Of a stretch of 23,231 nt of DNA, positions 7,257-23,005 are shown piece by piece (position 1 is the stretch's first letter; each line of letters opens with the position of its first letter). A program made the translations under genes and the position numbers. The notes under the pieces were generated by a model that was not told the origin of the DNA, did no database searches, and saw only the letters and a program-made list of their open reading frames with translations. Source of the DNA: Candidatus Heimdallarchaeota archaeon (lineage in GTDB: Archaea; Asgardarchaeota; Heimdallarchaeia; Hodarchaeales; Hodarchaeaceae); assembly GCA_048881705.1 (NCBI GenBank), contig JBHLSH010000064.1:1-23231 (forward strand), read 5' to 3'.

Positions 7257-7928
7257 ATGCGGAGTTTATCATTGGGTGAAGAATTTTTCGAATGGACCGG
7301 AAATAAAGAAGTATTGAAAACCCCTTATTGGAAGGTAACCATTACAAGTCCCGCCATGGTCGTTTCGGTGAATGAAAATTTAAAACCCCGCGGTATCGTC
7401 ATATTGGGAAAGGTGGAGGCAATTGTAGATACTATTGTACCAACTTCAGAAGGGGCATTTGGTAACACAACCATCTTTGATGGTACAAACCTGGTAATTC
7501 TAGGGCTTACAATTGATGATTTAAAGGACTCTCTCTTCAGTAGAGGGCATGCATCGGAATCTACACACGAATGGAAACAGGATGCGCAAGCCATGATAAG
7601 GAAACTCCAGAACAGAATCAGATCGAAGGATTTCCATTTCGAACTCGATGGTGATGAAGACTTTGAATACGTCGTATTTGGAAAACGTAACTTCCTTCTT
7701 GTAGGCGATTCGAAGAAGTTCGTCCTTATTCATCGCAAACAGATCGCAATACGGAGCGGTGAGGAAAAATTAGTGCAGATCGATCCCATTGAAGGTATTC
7801 TTGTAGCAAACAAGAATGAGGTTCTGAACATAGGAGGTTATTCCACGAGCCTTAATCTAGGAGGCATGCTTAGTGACCTCGGTCTCCGAATTGCATCATC
7901 AGTTCTTGATCATGTACTATGGGATTAA
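7257..7928 (+). CDS. Hypothetical protein, probably beta-rich, translationally coupled to the upstream regulator
   Basis: ATG immediately follows the upstream TAA (TAAATG), GAGGTGA RBS inside the upstream gene's last codons. 223 aa, no motif recognised. Confidence 0.75.
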   Translation: MRSLSLGEEFFEWTGNKEVLKTPYWKVTITSPAMVVSVNENLKPRGIVILGKVEAIVDTIVPTSEGAFGNTTIFDGTNLVILGLTIDDLKDSLFSRGHASESTHEWKQDAQAMIRKLQNRIRSKDFHFELDGDEDFEYVVFGKRNFLLVGDSKKFVLIHRKQIAIRSGEEKLVQIDPIEGILVANKNEVLNIGGYSTSLNLGGMLSDLGLRIASSVLDHVLWD

Positions 7929-7990
7929 TCTATCCAACAAGCTTTATTCCGTAGACTTCTAGGTAAGGAGACCATTATTAAGAAGCAGTA

Positions 7991-8821
7991 TTAGGAGATG
8001 TTCGTCAACTCCCTCCTGATTTGTTCTAAATTCGCGTGATGAATACTTTCGGCGTAGTCCCTTGGGAGGGATTTTCGTGGCTCAGATAGACATTCTTCAA
8101 GTGGGATTCCTTGAATCTGACCTTCAGTTATTCCCGAATCGATTTGTTCTTGCACTAGTTTCCTTATGGACTCGAGGTAGCTTATATCGCTTTGGATCTT
8201 TTTTTTTCCACAAACAGATCCATGTCCTTGTACAATGATATCAACGTCCATTTTTTTGATTTTATGTAAGGATTCCAGCAGCTTTCTACTATCAAATTTT
8301 ACAAAGGGAAGCTCTATGACTACATCCCCTGCAAAAAGGATCTTCTGTTGTGGAAGATGCACAATACTGGAATCAGATGTATGTCCAGGCATATGATATA
8401 AGACCAAAGGGATTTCTCCGACCGAAAGACGAAAGGTCTCAGTATAGGTTTGGGTTGGAAAAACCTGGGATACATTCTTTAGGCTCGAAAAACTCTTTTT
8501 GGCGGATCTTAAAAGCTCTGTTCCTTGTTTCTTCATTAATGAAAGCGTCTTCTCATGAGCAATTATCTGTACAGCCCCAAAAAATTGATTACCCCATACG
8601 TGGTCGGCATCTGAATGAGTATTTATGACCCCCCTGATAACAAATCCCTTTTCCTCCAAATACCTTCTGATTTTCTTGGCATCTTCAGGAAAGAAAAGAG
8701 TATCAATCACAACAGCTTCCTTTCTTGAATAAACCGCTCCTGCGACAACTCCTCCCTCATCGATCGATAATGAGGGATGTTTTCCAACGAACCTCATAAC
8801 ATTTTCATTTAATGCCTCCAC
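7991..8821 (-). CDS. Metallo-beta-lactamase-fold hydrolase
   Basis: AVVIDT, THSDADH (HxHxDH variant), GHT, LFAGD, VQGHG. GTG start. Confidence 0.85.
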   Translation of the reverse strand: MEALNENVMRFVGKHPSLSIDEGGVVAGAVYSRKEAVVIDTLFFPEDAKKIRRYLEEKGFVIRGVINTHSDADHVWGNQFFGAVQIIAHEKTLSLMKKQGTELLRSAKKSFSSLKNVSQVFPTQTYTETFRLSVGEIPLVLYHMPGHTSDSSIVHLPQQKILFAGDVVIELPFVKFDSRKLLESLHKIKKMDVDIIVQGHGSVCGKKKIQSDISYLESIRKLVQEQIDSGITEGQIQGIPLEECLSEPRKSLPRDYAESIHHANLEQIRRELTNIS

Positions 8822-8850
8822 GATTCTAGCTTCCTAGTAATCATTTGAGA

Positions 8851-16212: not shown

Positions 16213-16692
16213 CTAAGCTCCCTCTCGTGTATCAGGGGGACTCATACCAGGTAGAACCGTAAATACACTATCCGCGTAATAGTCGATCAAATAATATATG
16301 AAATCACGCGCAGCTACTACACCGATCAGTTTTCCATCCTCCATGACCGGCATGTGATCGTATTTTCCTCCCTCGTACATAGCCATTACGAGTTTAGATA
16401 TTGAATCTGTGCTTTCGATGGGAGTGAAGTCAACTTCCATTATCGAACTTGCGAGGGAATCCTCCCTTAGTTCCCCGATCGCTGCCCATCTTAAAATTGA
16501 CCGTTCCGTGATTAATCCTTGAATCTGCTCATTAGAATCGACTAAGCATACATAGTCCGTCTCTCGCTCCTTAAGCGAGTTTAAAGCGTCTCTTATTGTT
16601 GCTGTCTCAACATTTAGGGTCTTTAATTTTGTTCGAATCAGCCGAGAACACTGATCCGTCTTAAACAGTTTAATTATGTCCGGATCTGACAT
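16213..16692 (-). CDS. Stand-alone CBS-pair protein
   Basis: TIRDALNSL...GLITERS and SISKLV..M...HMPV...IGVVAARD. ATG 16692 is preferred because the track's 16887 start leaves only 7 bp before the divergent gene. Confidence 0.85.
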   Translation of the reverse strand: MSDPDIIKLFKTDQCSRLIRTKLKTLNVETATIRDALNSLKERETDYVCLVDSNEQIQGLITERSILRWAAIGELREDSLASSIMEVDFTPIESTDSISKLVMAMYEGGKYDHMPVMEDGKLIGVVAARDFIYYLIDYYADSVFTVLPGMSPPDTREGA

Positions 16693-16894
16693 GGTCTGTC
16701 CCACGATTAGAAAATAAATTGTATTTGATAAAATTTTTTCTGATAAATTCGTTGCAATTGGCGAATTTGCAAACCCCTGAAAAAGATCCCTCCTTAATCG
16801 AGTCACTAAGGGATTTTTTCTATCATCCGTCCAGGAAATGTTAGTTACCAAGTAACCAATAATAAAACAGATAAATTCTTTTTCCAAAATTTAT

Positions 16895-19174
16895 ATGGCC
16901 GTTGTATTGGGATTCGGAATGAACTGGAATATTCTGCTTGCCTATTTCAATTCATTTATGGCTGCCATCGGTTCAGGAATTACCTTTACCGCCGTCTCCG
17001 TATTTATTACACAAACATTGGATTTATCAAATCTTGTTCTAGGGAATCTGTTTACAATAGCAGGATTAGCGTCAACAATCTTCGTATTTCCGTCTGGCTA
17101 CCTAGCGGATAAGTACCGAAGGGATATTCTAATTCGATTATCAGTACTTTTTCTACTTGTGGGCCAGATCTTGCTTATTACTTCAACGACTCTAATTGGC
17201 GATCCTGAAACCGCGTTAATTGCATTAATAGCAAGTCGTTTTCTTGATGGTATGGGCTGGGGACTATCTGGACCTGCTGTACAAGCTCTTATAGCTGACA
17301 GTCTTGAACCCGGTAACAGATCACGTGTGTATGCGCGGATGCATTTTGTGAACCTTGGGGCATCTGCCATTGGCCCTTTTCTAGCTATTGGACTAACCTT
17401 TGTTTTGGGTGATACCTGGGCCATCGGAACTCTTCAGAACTTGATCATAATGGGTGCCGTTGCCTCCATATTTGGGATTCTCTCGTTAGGACTCATGAGC
17501 GATGAGAATGCGGTTGCTTCAAGACTGGAAATCCCCTCTCAAGATAAACAGATAGATAAAGAACCCGTGATTGCCACTGTGTTCGGGCGAGAATTCTCAT
17601 ACGATGTTGTCATTCCAGGCGTTATGGTAATTTCGGGAATAATTATAGGATTTGGTGCAGGTGCAACGGTAGCCTTCTTTCCCGTGCTTTTTGCAGATCC
17701 CGATATTGGTTATGGATTACAACCCTTATTTACCTACACAGTCATGGGCATAACCAGCCTTGCAACGGGATCTGCTGGAATTATGGCCCAGAAATTGATT
17801 CAAAAAACGGGCAGAATCGGTAGTATGTTTCTGGTTCAAGGCCTTGCTATAATATGTCTCCTTGGATTAGTCATTAATCTCGCTTTGTATCAAGGAGGTA
17901 CAATTCTCTTTGATACATCAGTGTTAATACTTGTCTTCTTTTATATATCGCGTAATTCGCTAATGAATGCTAGTGGCCCAATTTCTCGATCCATCGTTAT
18001 GGACGTAGTTCCTTCCAAAGACAGGGGAAAGTGGAATTCGTTAGAAACATTGGCTTGGGGCATGTTCTGGTCTTTATCGGCATCTATTGGCGGATTTGTG
18101 GTTGATACGTTTGGTTTTTTGTACGTATTCGTATTTACCGCGACATTGTACTCTGTAGCAACTCTAATTTTACTCACAATTAGAAAGCGTGTTCCCAAGG
18201 AATCGGTCTTATCCCGAACCTATCAGATTGGAAAACTTTCAACTCGTAATCGTGTTGTTATGTCATCTAGTACTTTGGATGGAAGGTTAAAACCTGCAGA
18301 TCACGCGGGTCAATTAAAAACGGATACTATATCTTTTTATGCTAATGTATCTCAAGGAGGAGTGGGATTAATTTATCTACAACCTGCTTACATCTCTGAT
18401 TCCGGTAAACAGACTACAAACCAGTTAGGAATTCATGAGGACTATTGCATTCCACGTTTACAAGAATTAGTGGAGCGTGTGCACCAAGAGGGTGCTTTGA
18501 TAGGAATTCGCTTAACGCATGCCGGAGCCGCAACGCGGAGGTCAATAACTGGAACGGAACCTTTATCAGCTTCTAGCATCCAAATCCCAGGATATGACCT
18601 TCCTCGCGGGCTTGAATCTGGGGAGTTAATAGAAATTAGACAAGAATTTTTGAATGCCGCCCACAGAGCGATTGTCGCCGGTTTTGATGTTATTGAACTA
18701 TCCTCATTTTTCGATCCAAATCAAGTTCCAGACTTGTTTACTCAGTTTCTCTCTCCAAAATTTAATAAACGAACAGATGAGTACGGTGGATCATTTATAA
18801 ACAGAATACAATTTCCTTTGGAAGTAATAAGGGATATAAAGTCATCTCTTCCACCATCTACGATGTTAGCGTTCTATATATGTATTCCCCCGCACAAATT
18901 GGCATTTGATGAACTTATTGAATTCGTTGGCTCTCTATTTGACTCTGGAATAGAGATCCTGGGCCTAGATTTTGCAGATCGGTCAATCGAACAAGCAGAG
19001 TCTATTGAACTGATTGAAAAAATACGAAAAGAGTTTCCTGCGTTAGCCCTAGTTTTTTGTGGAGATTTTGATGTAAAAAGCGGAGAAAACGCGATTAAAA
19101 AAGGTCAGGCTGATCTTATTGGCTTTGAAACTTTGCTTCAACGAGATATATCTTTTCCTAATGCTTTGCGATAA
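16895..19174 (+). CDS. MFS transporter fused to a degenerate NADH:flavin oxidoreductase (Old Yellow Enzyme) domain
   Basis: aa 1-~430: about 12 hydrophobic segments and MFS motif A (GYLADKYRR). aa ~438-759: OYE scaffold (QIGKLSTRNRVVM, LTHAG, AGFDVIEL, QFLSPKFNKRTDEYGGSFINR). One uninterrupted frame. Confidence 0.85.
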   Translation: MAVVLGFGMNWNILLAYFNSFMAAIGSGITFTAVSVFITQTLDLSNLVLGNLFTIAGLASTIFVFPSGYLADKYRRDILIRLSVLFLLVGQILLITSTTLIGDPETALIALIASRFLDGMGWGLSGPAVQALIADSLEPGNRSRVYARMHFVNLGASAIGPFLAIGLTFVLGDTWAIGTLQNLIIMGAVASIFGILSLGLMSDENAVASRLEIPSQDKQIDKEPVIATVFGREFSYDVVIPGVMVISGIIIGFGAGATVAFFPVLFADPDIGYGLQPLFTYTVMGITSLATGSAGIMAQKLIQKTGRIGSMFLVQGLAIICLLGLVINLALYQGGTILFDTSVLILVFFYISRNSLMNASGPISRSIVMDVVPSKDRGKWNSLETLAWGMFWSLSASIGGFVVDTFGFLYVFVFTATLYSVATLILLTIRKRVPKESVLSRTYQIGKLSTRNRVVMSSSTLDGRLKPADHAGQLKTDTISFYANVSQGGVGLIYLQPAYISDSGKQTTNQLGIHEDYCIPRLQELVERVHQEGALIGIRLTHAGAATRRSITGTEPLSASSIQIPGYDLPRGLESGELIEIRQEFLNAAHRAIVAGFDVIELSSFFDPNQVPDLFTQFLSPKFNKRTDEYGGSFINRIQFPLEVIRDIKSSLPPSTMLAFYICIPPHKLAFDELIEFVGSLFDSGIEILGLDFADRSIEQAESIELIEKIRKEFPALALVFCGDFDVKSGENAIKKGQADLIGFETLLQRDISFPNALR

Positions 19175-19194: not shown

Positions 19195-19584
19195 TTAACT
19201 GGTACAAAACGTTTCATATTCTTCAGCATCCATTAATTTCGCAAGATCTTCTTCCAAGTTTGATGGCCGAACGCGGACAAGCCATGCACCATAAGGATCG
19301 GTATTAGTTAGTTCCGGAGAGTCTTCAACCTCCTCGTTAACCTCCATAACTTCTCCTGATAATGGCGAATGGACATCGGATACAGCTTTAACGGATTCAA
19401 TCGCTGCAAAGACTTCTCCATGGATTATTGTATCTCCGACCTCAGGAAGCTCAACCATGACAACATCTTTCAGAGCTTGTTGGGCAAAATCCGAAATGCC
19501 AATCAGACATGTACCATCATCTTCAACTCTGCACCATTGGTGCTCCTTATAGTATTTTGCGGACTTATCGTATTTATAGGACAT
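19195..19584 (-). CDS. gcvH: Glycine cleavage system H protein / lipoyl carrier
   Basis: EHQW, IGISDFAQQAL, lipoylation motif IESVKAVSD, SPLSGEV, DPYG.WL. AAGGAG RBS. Confidence 0.93.
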   Translation of the reverse strand: MSYKYDKSAKYYKEHQWCRVEDDGTCLIGISDFAQQALKDVVMVELPEVGDTIIHGEVFAAIESVKAVSDVHSPLSGEVMEVNEEVEDSPELTNTDPYGAWLVRVRPSNLEEDLAKLMDAEEYETFCTS

Positions 19585-20005: not shown

Positions 20006-20334
20006 TTCCATCTTTGAAACACTGAATTGGAGTAGTGTACACTCTTAATTAGCGTATGAATTTTCCAATTTAAACAATTTAATTCATAATTATCGTTATT
20101 TACCGCAAATTAGAAATGAACTGTTCGTTGATCGCTTATTCACTCCAATGTGCTCACGAAATAGTTGTCAGGGGCGGATGGGCTAATTAACAATAATAAA
20201 TTCCGGAAATAAACGAAAAAAAAGAAAAAGGCCAAGTGCCATACGAGTACATGGAATTACCTATATATAAAACCAGAGGAGATTCCTATAAATAGCTCAG
20301 AAGTGCTCGAGAGTCTCTTAAATTGGGATTATTT

Positions 20335-20976
20335 ATGAGTACAAAAGTATATGAGTTAAATGATGAAAGCCAGGCTTTTCGTAACGAAGTTGTTGAAGAA
20401 GAGGGGGGCCATCACCTTAGGAGCTGCTTTCAATGTTCATCCTGCTCTTTGGCGTGCCCTGTGGCCGAAGTTGGTGTTGATCTGCATCCTCGTCGTGTTA
20501 TTCGCCAAATTCTTTTTGGCCTAAGGAAAGAAGTTTTGCAGAGCCCAGAAATTTGGAAATGTGTTGGGTGCTTTGAATGTACCGACACGTGTCCCCAGAA
20601 CGTGCGTTTTACAGAGGTGATAGAGGCCCTCCGACGGATAGCTATCCGTGACTCTAAACATAGAGATAAGAATCGTCGAATAGCATTACCCAAGGAAGGG
20701 GTTTTAAAACATTCGTTCGATAAAAGGTTCAAGGAAAGCGTATGGCTATGGGGACGGACTTGGGAACCTGGAATGATCGGTCGGTACTTCTTATATGGAC
20801 GGGGGCTCCCCTTTGGCGCCTTGATTGGATTTAAGTATGTATCAATGATTCTAAGCTTGATTGTCAAGTTTAAAATTGAATTCCTTCCTCCCCGAACGGG
20901 AGAGACGCGTAAGGAAGTTCGACGTATTTTCGCAAGAGCCAAAGAGTTACAGAACGGTAGGGGGCCATCATCATGA
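20335..20976 (+). CDS. hdrC: Heterodisulfide reductase subunit C-like (2x[4Fe-4S])
   Basis: CFQCSSCSLACP and CVGCFECTDTCP, HPRRVIR, IWKC. Stop overlaps the hdrB start (ATGA). Alternative TTG start at 20323. Confidence 0.85.
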   Translation: MSTKVYELNDESQAFRNEVVEEEGGHHLRSCFQCSSCSLACPVAEVGVDLHPRRVIRQILFGLRKEVLQSPEIWKCVGCFECTDTCPQNVRFTEVIEALRRIAIRDSKHRDKNRRIALPKEGVLKHSFDKRFKESVWLWGRTWEPGMIGRYFLYGRGLPFGALIGFKYVSMILSLIVKFKIEFLPPRTGETRKEVRRIFARAKELQNGRGPSS

Positions 20977-21872
20977 AGATAGCGTACTATCCTGGATGTT
21001 CATTACATAAAATGGCAAAGGAATATAATACGTCTACATACAAAGTTTCTAAAGCTCTTGATCTCGAGCTGGAAGAACTAGAGGGGTGGAATTGCTGCGG
21101 AGCAATGGAAGTTAGCGCTATTGATCCCCTGGCTGCTGATGGCATTGTAGCTCGTAATTTGGCATTGGCCGAAACTCAGGGCTATAACGATCTCATGGCG
21201 GTCTGTCCAGCCTGCTCTCATAAATTAATCTCAGTCAATCGAAAAATGGAACTCAATGATGCGAAGGCAGAGGAGATTAATTCGCTTCTAGACGGTTCCT
21301 ATACTCCTGGTGCAGTGAATCCAATCCATTTTCTGCAGGTTCTCAGAGACAAAATCGGTTTAGATAAAATAAGGCAGAAAGTCCTTCCAGGAAATCCGCT
21401 TGAGGGAAAAAAAGGCGTATCTTACTATGGATGCCTCTGTACTAGACCAGGGGACGTCATTCAGTTTGAGGATCCAAACAACCCAACGTTTATGGATGAT
21501 ATTCTTCGCGTAATCGGAGTTGAAGTTCCACATTTTCCCATGAAAACCAAGTGTTGTGGAGCCACGCAACTCATGGTGAACAAGCCCTTGGTTGAAAATC
21601 TTACAGGGAATATCTTATTGAATGCTCATGATGTAGGTGCTGAATTTGTTGTCGTAGCCTGCCAGATGTGTGCACAGGCCTTGGACGGCCAACAGAAACA
21701 ATCTCTCAGGCGTGTAGAAGCCAAGAATGTCAAACTTCCCGTGCTATACATATCTCAAGCCTTGGGTATTGCGATGGGTATGAGCTACGGTATGCTGGGT
21801 TTGGGTTCCAATTTCGTTTCACCCAAAAGGCTTCTTGCGCGTAAATCAAACGGAGGCACAGGTACAAAATGA
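20973..21872 (+). CDS. hdrB: Heterodisulfide reductase subunit B-like (two CCG domains)
   Basis: YYPGC...WNCCG...CPAC and YYGC...KCCG...CQMC: both non-cubane cluster motifs intact. Confidence 0.88.
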   Translation: MKIAYYPGCSLHKMAKEYNTSTYKVSKALDLELEELEGWNCCGAMEVSAIDPLAADGIVARNLALAETQGYNDLMAVCPACSHKLISVNRKMELNDAKAEEINSLLDGSYTPGAVNPIHFLQVLRDKIGLDKIRQKVLPGNPLEGKKGVSYYGCLCTRPGDVIQFEDPNNPTFMDDILRVIGVEVPHFPMKTKCCGATQLMVNKPLVENLTGNILLNAHDVGAEFVVVACQMCAQALDGQQKQSLRRVEAKNVKLPVLYISQALGIAMGMSYGMLGLGSNFVSPKRLLARKSNGGTGTK

Positions 21873-23005
21873 CATTATCTGGCCAATCTCCCTCTGGATT
21901 TCTTCCATTGGATACTTCCGATCCGATGTCTGTTATCTATGCATGTTATCAATGTGGATCGTGTACAGGGGTATGTCCTCTACGTAAAGTCTCACAATAC
22001 AATCCACGTGCCATTATTCATGCTTCTCTTCTGGGCCACTCTTTGTCAGAGGATGATCTAACCGATTGTCTGACTTGCCGTCAATGCTACGAAGTTTGCC
22101 CTCAACAAATTGATTTTCCTATCTTTATCCAAGGTCAACGGGCCCAACTTGGGGTTAACGAACAGAACTTCGCCCATCATAACATCTTCAATCTTCTCCA
22201 AGATATGCAAAGTAAAAACAGTGAGAAAGGGATGGAATTCGAGTATAAAGGGGATCTCAATCCTGAAGGGAATATTGCCTATTTTCCTGGTTGTATTGAC
22301 TTGTTTGATCGTTTACTAGACCTTGAAGAAGTTGACTTCCATCAGATAGGTCAAAGCGCAATCAACCTTATCAATAAGGCTGGAATAGAACCAAACCTTG
22401 TTTCTCTGAAATGCTGCGGCCACGATGCCTTTTGGAGCGGAGATAATGTATCTTTTAAGAAAATACGCTCCTATAATGAGAAGATCCTGAAAAAATCAGG
22501 AGTAACAACCCTCATTTTGTCATGTGCCGAATGTTATTATTCATTCAAAGAACTGTATCAGCTTGAAAACATCACAATTCAGCATATTTCAGAATTTATC
22601 GTAAAAAATTCTGATAACTTCTCAAAAGGAGATATGGAGCCCACGACCGTGACCTATCACGATCCATGTCGATTGGGACGCTATTTGGGTGAATATGACA
22701 ATCCTCGTGAGGCTATCAAAGGTATCGATGGCATTACGTTTACTGAACTCCCAAAAAATCGTGGATCTACTCAATGTTGTGGGGTTTCGGCATGGATGAA
22801 GTGTGATGACAAATCGAGATATTTAATGCTCCAAAAACTAGAAGAAGCAACAAGGACAGGTGCGTCTACGCTAACAGTATCCTGTACTAAGTGTTTTGCT
22901 CATTTAAACTGTGTTCTGCATGATAAAAAACCACAACACAATTTTGATATTCAGATCAAGGAGCTCGGAACCCTTGTGGACGAAGCAACCCCGCAGGTGA
23001 AATAA
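21869..23005 (+). CDS. HdrD/GlpC-like Fe-S oxidoreductase (HdrC+HdrB-type fusion)
   Basis: [12 protein letters not shown] and [12 protein letters not shown], then FPGC...KCCGH...CAEC and YHDPC...QCCG...CTKC. ATGA overlap with hdrB. Confidence 0.8.

Follow-up and report, generated by a model that had tools for sequence, protein, structure and literature searches.

An Asgard Archaeal MFS Transporter Fused to an Old Yellow Enzyme-Like Barrel That Has Probably Lost Its Flavin

Introduction

At their cytoplasmic face, Kv channels carry the Kv-beta subunits, aldo-keto-reductase triosephosphate isomerase (TIM) barrels to which a modulatory role is ascribed; these keep their NADPH site and are separate subunits. 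Another soluble domain on a transport protein, the YAM domain, is small and ferredoxin-like. It is carried as an extra C-terminal cytoplasmic domain by Escherichia coli YajR, a major facilitator superfamily (MFS) transporter of the DHA1 type (PDB 3WDO; PMC8154325). The window analyzed here, the whole stretch of 23,231 nucleotides at positions 1 to 23,231 (forward strand) of contig JBHLSH010000064.1 of Candidatus Heimdallarchaeota archaeon (assembly GCA_048881705.1), encodes an MFS transporter that continues, in the same frame, into a barrel of the Old Yellow Enzyme (OYE) family. Like YajR, the protein has 12 transmembrane (TM) helices, motif A and a soluble domain on a predicted cytoplasmic C-terminus (PMC8154325). 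Among transporters with a soluble domain added at the C-terminus, YajR with its YAM domain is the closest precedent, but YAM is not an enzyme-derived TIM barrel of 320 residues. The likeness to Kv-beta is one of analogy, without homology: a TIM barrel of oxidoreductase origin that faces the cytoplasm on a transport protein of the membrane. In the fusion, however, the barrel has a destroyed cofactor site and a covalent link to the transporter.

The barrel itself compares with the YqjM-type OYEs, from which it would descend. With YqjM, TsER (TsOYE) and GkOYE (PDB 1z41, 3hf3, 5nux and 3gr7), it shares a complete (beta/alpha)8 barrel with an N-terminal hairpin and the scaffold motifs NR, HAG, R..AGFD..E and QFLSP..N.R.D.YGG...R. 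Unlike them, it lacks the flavin mononucleotide (FMN) contacts, the His/His/Tyr set and the Arg-finger tail, contains a 5-residue insertion and is fused to a transporter. Most likely, the barrel is a pseudoenzyme that would bind no flavin and transfer no hydride, and it is rather likely to serve as an FMN-free, non-catalytic accessory or regulatory module on the cytoplasmic side of an MFS transporter of a putative H+-antiporter or exporter type. The feature joins two known kinds, the MFS transporters with accessory domains and the pseudoenzyme domains. An initial annotation, made from the letters of this DNA, knew of no description of the architecture, and the literature search agreed: no description of an MFS-OYE fusion, of an OYE pseudoenzyme or of the Pfam pair Oxidored_FMN/MFS_1 was found.

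Architecture and Authenticity of the Fusion

Positions 16895..19174 (+) form one uninterrupted open reading frame (ORF) of 759 amino acids plus stop. That a single frame joins an MFS transporter to an OYE scaffold, as first annotated, is borne out by two Pfam matches above their curated cut-offs: MFS_1 (PF07690) at aa 17-350 (E = 2e-37, 129.4 bits vs. a cut-off of 33.4) and Oxidored_FMN (PF00724) at aa 444-651 (E = 5.7e-35, 121.6 bits vs. 27). In the confirmed architecture, a conserved linker of 16 residues connects the 12-TM MFS transporter to a barrel with the complete (beta/alpha)8 OYE fold. When the protein was modeled in full by AlphaFold2 (AF2; pLDDT 77.8), 12 long helices lay within aa 11-426, with a disordered central loop at aa 199-235, and were followed by the beta/alpha barrel. 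The parts are the following:

16895..19174, + strand: longest ORF, MFS transporter plus OYE-like barrel (ORF call, Pfam)
16919..18172, + strand: MFS domain, 12 TM helices, aa 9-426 (Pfam MFS_1, AF2)
18173..18220, + strand: conserved linker LTIRKRVPKESVLSRT, from TM12 to the N-terminal hairpin of the barrel (alignment)
18221..19171, + strand: OYE-fold (beta/alpha)8 barrel, aa 443-759 (Pfam, AF2, Foldseek)

A word-indexed search of 5.8 billion proteins yielded about 40 full-length fusions of 737-780 aa, all from Asgard archaeal assemblies and all with both Pfam domains. One of them, at locus L004, is 90% identical to the window protein; the rest are 51-59% identical and have the same junction. 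These proteins are currently annotated as "MFS transporter" or "2,4-dienoyl-CoA reductase-like".

The source genome is a draft of 155 contigs with an estimated contamination of 7.5%, and nothing else was found that would favor an artefact, be it a chimera at the junction or an enzyme domain drifting neutrally towards decay. The same junction is present in more than 25 independent assemblies, two of which are the closed chromosomes CP070695 (4.94 Mb) and CP070760 (3.16 Mb), and an assembly chimera is therefore excluded. The frame is intact across the family at a mean barrel identity to the window protein of 47% (61% for the MFS half; 25 sequences). Between the window and the L004 orthologue, the ratio of nonsynonymous to synonymous substitution rates (dN/dS; Nei-Gojobori, dS 0.4-0.6) is 0.109 on the barrel vs. 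0.099 on the MFS half. The barrel is maintained by purifying selection, as had been suspected from its long frame, and artefact or recent decay can be given practically no weight.

An OYE Fold without Its Cofactor-Binding and Catalytic Residues

By sequence and fold, the barrel is a member of the OYE family. Modeled by AF2 on its own, it reached a pLDDT of 83.5 and a pTM of 0.87, and Foldseek aligned the model to YqjM, TsER and GkOYE with TM-scores of 0.85-0.87 at 27-29% identity. Searched against the PDB, the family profile matched Bacillus subtilis YqjM (1z41) first (3.5e-43), followed by other "thermophilic-like" OYEs. NCBIfam gave sub-threshold matches only, to the OYE enzymes NamA, BaiCD and NemA and to drug-antiporter MFS models. 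When the barrel was used for an ESM Atlas feature search, nothing but ordinary NADH:flavin oxidoreductase clusters came up. Divergence is greater in the second half of the barrel, since the Pfam model is matched only over its positions 7-215 of 342. The structural motif QFLSP..N.RTDEYGG...NR, noted from the outset, is retained, and the conserved positions of the barrel are overwhelmingly scaffold residues common with canonical OYEs. The barrel stops right after helix 8, without the C-terminal Arg-finger tail.

The 17 FMN-contact and 6 substrate residues of YqjM are listed in PMC4002455. They were mapped by HMMER alignment, and the residues at each position were counted over 25 family members. 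The window protein has other residues at about 14 of the 17 FMN contacts and at all six substrate positions; most of these replacements are also family-wide. The replaced segments in the window are:

18260..18274, + strand: beta-1 loop MSSST (aa 456-460) for the canonical M-S/A-P-M-C (YqjM S23, P24, M25, C26)
18509..18511, + strand: R539, in RLTHAG, at the FMN-binding Gln position (YqjM Q102)
18701..18733, + strand: SSFFDPNQVPD (aa 603-613) for the catalytic H164-A-A-H167-G-Y169, with a 5-residue insertion (TsOYE and YqjM alignments)
18869..18883, + strand: AFYIC (aa 659-663) on beta-5; YqjM R215 becomes A/S or Y/H depending on the alignment register
19061..19072, + strand: GDFD (CGD/GDFD, aa 722-726) after beta-7, acidic at the FMN phosphate loop (G284-M285)
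19121..19132, + strand: GFET (aa 743-746) on beta-8 at F305-I-G307-R308; the phosphate-binding G-R becomes E-T

Over the family, the YqjM residues are replaced as follows:

S23: P/S
P24: S
C26: S/T
Y28: variable
A60: P (25/25)
Q102: R (24/25)
H164: S/A
H167: V/L/F
Y169: D/N, behind a 4-5-residue insertion
R215: A/S (Y/H in the MAFFT register)
S249: D/G
M285: D/N/G
F305: G
G307: E or G (E in half of the family)
R308: R, K, T or Q
R336: absent; the protein ends just past helix 8

The substitutions MSSST, RLTHAG, AFYIC, CGD and GFET and the replaced catalytic segment had all been listed in the initial annotation, and each was found in its place. As a family trait, they hold in part: the loss of the cofactor and catalytic residues extends over the 25 members, but GFET is confined to the sublineage of the window, other members having GFGR or GFEK. 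At position 539, Arg is found in 24 of the 25 members, whereas 74 of 80 canonical OYEs have Gln. The positions of H164, H167 and Y169 are occupied by S603, F606 and D613 in the window, and the catalytic set is kept in none of the 25 sequences. The former phosphate site is acidic, through GDFD and, in half of the family, E745. Bulky family-specific residues (R539, F725, F744 and Y/H661) stand at former cofactor positions. The set of 17 contacts that marks a functional OYE, Q102, R215, G307 and R308 among them, is therefore not preserved, nor is the His-His or His-Asn pair with its Tyr proton donor. Homology to an enzyme, loss of catalytic and cofactor residues and purifying selection, the operational marks of a pseudoenzyme, come together in what would thus be classed as one.

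Two canonical OYE paralogues, whose QxxHxG, HxxH/N-GY and GG motifs are intact, are encoded in the same genome (G000), on contigs C130 (1054-2067, +) and C99, seen as loci L001 and L002:1360-2451 (-). Their catalytic motifs read IHSAHGYLL and IHGANGYIF. Only the fused copy is therefore affected by the residue loss. The first paralogue (IHSAHGYLL) carries a Cys-rich C-terminal tail, CISCSKC...C.

These data bear directly on whether the barrel could still be an FMN-dependent OYE with an unusual active site. Its fold is complete, its Pfam score lies above the cut-off and some members keep GFGR. Against this stand the replaced FMN contacts and substrate residues, the acidic residues in the phosphate site and the canonical paralogues, which keep all motifs within the same genome. 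An active OYE is highly improbable.

Within the family (alignment A2), the former FMN-site positions split into two co-varying residue sets, roughly P-D / A / Y / D / S / G-R versus S-N / S / H / G / H / E-K. The positions concerned are 177/178, 224/226, 257, 287 and 310/311 of the domain, corresponding to aa 612/613, 659/661, 692, 722 and 745/746 of the window protein. The two sets probably reflect two subclades.

The Transporter Half and the Linker

The N-terminal half has the characters of an MFS protein: twelve TM helices in two six-helix bundles, a family score above the cut-off and a motif A that fits the pattern GxxxD-R/K-x-G-R-R/K. In the 25 sequences, residues G68, A71, D72, R75, R76 and D77 of this motif are invariant. 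Two segments are of note:

17096..17125, + strand: MFS motif A, GYLADKYRRD, aa 68-77, in the cytoplasmic TM2-TM3 loop (sequence, alignment)
17351..17392, + strand: TM5 segment NLGASAIGPFLAIG, resembling antiporter motif C (sequence; partial match)

Motif C (GxxxGPxxGG) has been described for drug:H+ antiporters (PMC8154325). SAIGPFLAIG in TM5 is a partial match only, in which G160 and P161 are invariant in the family alignment. The NCBIfam drug:H+ antiporter (DHA) models TIGR00880 and TIGR00900 match the window protein far below their cut-offs. Because of the partial motif C and these weak matches, the transporter is proposed, with low confidence, to be of the H+-antiporter type or an exporter, and the direction of transport is likewise putative. 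No solved structure matched the MFS half (phmmer, E <= 0.01), and so no substrate is proposed.

Loops rich in Lys and Arg follow TM2, 4, 6, 8, 10 and 12, as read from the sequence. Together with the 12 helices and the place of motif A in the TM2-TM3 loop, this positive-inside pattern predicts a cytoplasmic C-terminus and hence a cytoplasmic barrel, as the initial annotation had supposed.

The linker R-x-R-V-P-K-E-S-x-L-x-R-x-Y ranks among the best conserved stretches of the protein: P434, E436, S437 and L439 are invariant, and R432, V433 and K435 are conserved at >=90%. This argues mildly for a fixed geometry of the barrel relative to TM12.

Distribution and Loss of the Barrel

Among 400 genomes of the phylum, the full-length fusion occurs only in the GTDB genus-level group of the window, in 14 of 21 genomes. 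In the source records, the fusion-bearing group goes by Hodarchaeales or Heimdall type. In four to five further genomes of the group, only the MFS orthologue is present (54-58% identical). Beyond the group, all matches were MFS proteins of <=41% identity. In a profile search of 1.84 billion representative proteins, the fusion family formed a single cluster (482 bits), accompanied by one fragment, P0071. The next matches, at about 200-245 bits, were canonical OYE or dienoyl-CoA-reductase proteins that keep the catalytic motif (P0072 keeps HGY), and no stand-alone "dead" relative of the barrel was present among these representatives. P0071, a metagenomic protein of 245 aa, opens with 60 unrelated residues rich in Gly and Asp and continues as the C-terminal half of the dead-OYE barrel; most likely, it is a mis-called or truncated gene and no new architecture.

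The MFS-only orthologues and paralogues (P0043, P0045-P0052, P0054 and P0055) are 53-59% identical over the MFS half. They end 5-10 residues past TM12, without a barrel; P0043 ends about 50 residues past TM12, and its low-complexity tail is not OYE-like. P0045 is syntenic with the fusion of CP070695, between the genes for a peptidyl-prolyl isomerase (PPIase) and a nitroreductase-PALP-BcrAD cluster, and stops a few residues past TM12. It had been considered that orthologues might turn out to be separate genes with intact active sites. This is not so: the unfused orthologues are simply without the barrel.

A split gene was considered for the homologues of about 430 aa and rejected. Downstream (3') of the MFS-only gene at L005, positions 7638-8843 hold a 401-aa ORF, multi-pass hydrophobic and with a C-terminal zinc-ribbon-like motif CxxC...CxxC. 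It had no Pfam match and is an unrelated membrane and zinc-ribbon protein. For P0054, a split gene was rejected as well. This protein of 426 aa is a separate paralogue, whose gene is convergent to that of a full 764-aa MFS-OYE fusion about 54 bp away (L010:1970-5598), both within the usual PALP-nitroreductase ... PPIase neighborhood. Some genomes therefore carry fused and unfused copies side by side.

A maximum-likelihood tree was computed from the MFS halves, with paralogues of 36-37% identity as outgroup. With strong support, it places both P0052 and the clade P0045-P0051 within the fused clades. The monophyly of the fused forms was rejected by the approximately unbiased (AU) test (difference in log-likelihood of 86, p = 1.7e-6). 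The shared junction and derived features of all barrels argue for a single origin of the fusion. With one origin and nested MFS-only forms, at least two losses of the barrel have occurred, each with retention of the transporter; the barrel is therefore accessory and not essential to transport.

Gene Start and Genomic Neighborhood

The gene probably starts downstream of the first ATG. MNWN is the N-terminus of all homologues and equals M9 of the 759-aa frame. The ESM Atlas record begins at this same residue, and the L004 orthologue is annotated at 751 aa. On these grounds, the true start is placed at ATG 16919, which makes the predicted ORF 8 codons shorter:

16919..19174, + strand: probable true gene, 751 aa, N-terminus MNWNILLAY (homologue alignment, ESM Atlas record, L004 call)
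16889..16895, + strand: TATA-like box TTTATAT, ~26 nt 5' of ATG 16919 (sequence read)

The box overlaps the first ATG (16895). Its distance from ATG 16919 suggests a leaderless transcript, whose start is a prediction from this spacing.

Most members of the family are flanked by a cyclophilin-type PPIase gene in divergent orientation and by a nitroreductase-PALP-BcrAD cluster in convergent orientation. The PPIase gene lies immediately 5' of the fusion or the MFS-only orthologue, and points away from it, in six loci (L005-L010; e.g., L006:5361-5834 and L008:4285-4770). It is absent from positions 16213-16918 of the window, where CBS and 2-oxoacid:ferredoxin oxidoreductase genes are found, as in L004. 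At both loci, the fusion gene lies between these genes and GcvH. Given the different upstream neighbors, the gene has moved in the sublineage of the window. The GcvH gene (19195-19584, -) separates the transporter from a string of HdrC/HdrB-like genes (20323-23005), in the order 4Fe-4S dicluster, CCG and a fused Fer4+CCG protein. The L004 counterpart of this string runs on into a large HdrA-like flavoprotein. As a clue to function, the genomic context was rejected, there being no conserved co-oriented partner that would point to a substrate or a regulator.

Role of the Barrel

In the explanation favored here, a secondary transporter of the MFS type runs from TM12 through the short conserved linker into a predicted cytoplasmic barrel, which keeps the OYE scaffold and is without the residues that hold FMN and those that bind and protonate the substrate. 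Coupled through TM12, this barrel would modulate the transporter from the cytoplasm in response to a partner or a small ligand. Upon a cytoplasmic signal, it would act on the rocker-switch cycle, on stability or on partner recruitment. A regulatory role is the most likely one, and sensing, gating and scaffolding fit the present observations alike. A narrower version, in which the FMN-free barrel would be a cytoplasmic receptor for an electrophilic or aromatic metabolite or for a protein partner and would gate the exporter through a rigid TM12 linker, is tentative and rather unlikely.

Several points weigh against a regulatory, FMN-free barrel. The loss of FMN is read from the sequence alone. 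H542 of the HAG motif and G723 are retained, as is GFGR in some members, so that a phosphate-less flavin or another planar ligand could be bound. The former active-site positions are no better conserved than the barrel average (entropy 1.28 vs. 1.36, permutation p = 0.33), which lends no support to a new, precisely conserved ligand site there and argues mildly against one; it is the ligand-sensing version that is affected. No co-oriented operon partner is conserved across the examined loci. Finally, the repeated loss indicates that the barrel is dispensable in some lineages and fits a weak or niche role. The initial annotation had proposed a pseudoenzyme repurposed for ligand sensing, gating or scaffolding. 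What stands of it is a dead OYE scaffold that is cytoplasmic, under selection, non-chimeric and undescribed; a precise ligand site found no support.

Some of these points would suit a barrel that has been neo-functionalised, its pocket remodelled for another ligand or cofactor such as a phosphate-free flavin, a deazaflavin or the transported substrate. It would then act on the substrate or hand it to the exporter, coupling transport and metabolism in the manner of the LplT-Aas-type MFS-enzyme fusions. S458, Q473, P497, Y517 and R539 are invariant or nearly so, family-specific and within or close to the C-terminal face of the barrel. H542, G723 and E731 of the scaffold are kept, and the barrel is under purifying selection of the same strength as the transporter. 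However, neither the sequence nor the length of the catalytic-loop replacement (aa 605-611) is constant within the family, the former site has only the average conservation of the domain and most of the conserved positions are scaffold residues common to canonical OYEs. The domain was, moreover, lost at least twice from a transporter that was kept. A new binding or catalytic function is, on balance, unlikely.

The concentration of conservation in the scaffold and the linker, and not in the pocket, is also what a passive appendage would show: a platform for oligomerisation, stability or partner docking, without gating effect or ligand binding. YqjM-type OYEs are obligate oligomers, and the domain is dispensable in some lineages, which would suit such a platform too. 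On the other hand, the tail that mediates the dimer contact in the YqjM type (the R336 finger) is missing, and the invariant linker suggests a fixed geometry to TM12, for which a mere tether has no need. A two-copy homodimer prediction of the barrel (alignment A2) scored 0.00, a result that makes no call and is evidence neither way. No observation separates the platform from the regulatory model; a purely passive role is nevertheless considered quite unlikely, somewhat more so than a new binding or catalytic function.

Significance

Since the fusion is known from one genus-level group only and is dispensable there, its general importance is limited. The label "2,4-dienoyl-CoA reductase-like" is wrong as a functional description of these proteins. 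A large enzyme-derived cytoplasmic domain is added to the few accessory domains known from MFS transporters, and natural pairs of orthologues, one having the domain (the window protein or P0009) and one lacking it (P0045 or P0052), would allow its effect to be tested directly. The Asgard lineage that bears the fusion has been placed closest to the eukaryotes in the literature. If the barrel were a receptor, no OYE pseudoenzyme would have been described before it, and it would be an archaeal, covalently fused counterpart of the tuning of channels by Kv-beta, invented once. If the regulatory, FMN-free reading is true, the fusion would be a natural example of the much-studied OYE flavoenzyme scaffold being reused without its cofactor.

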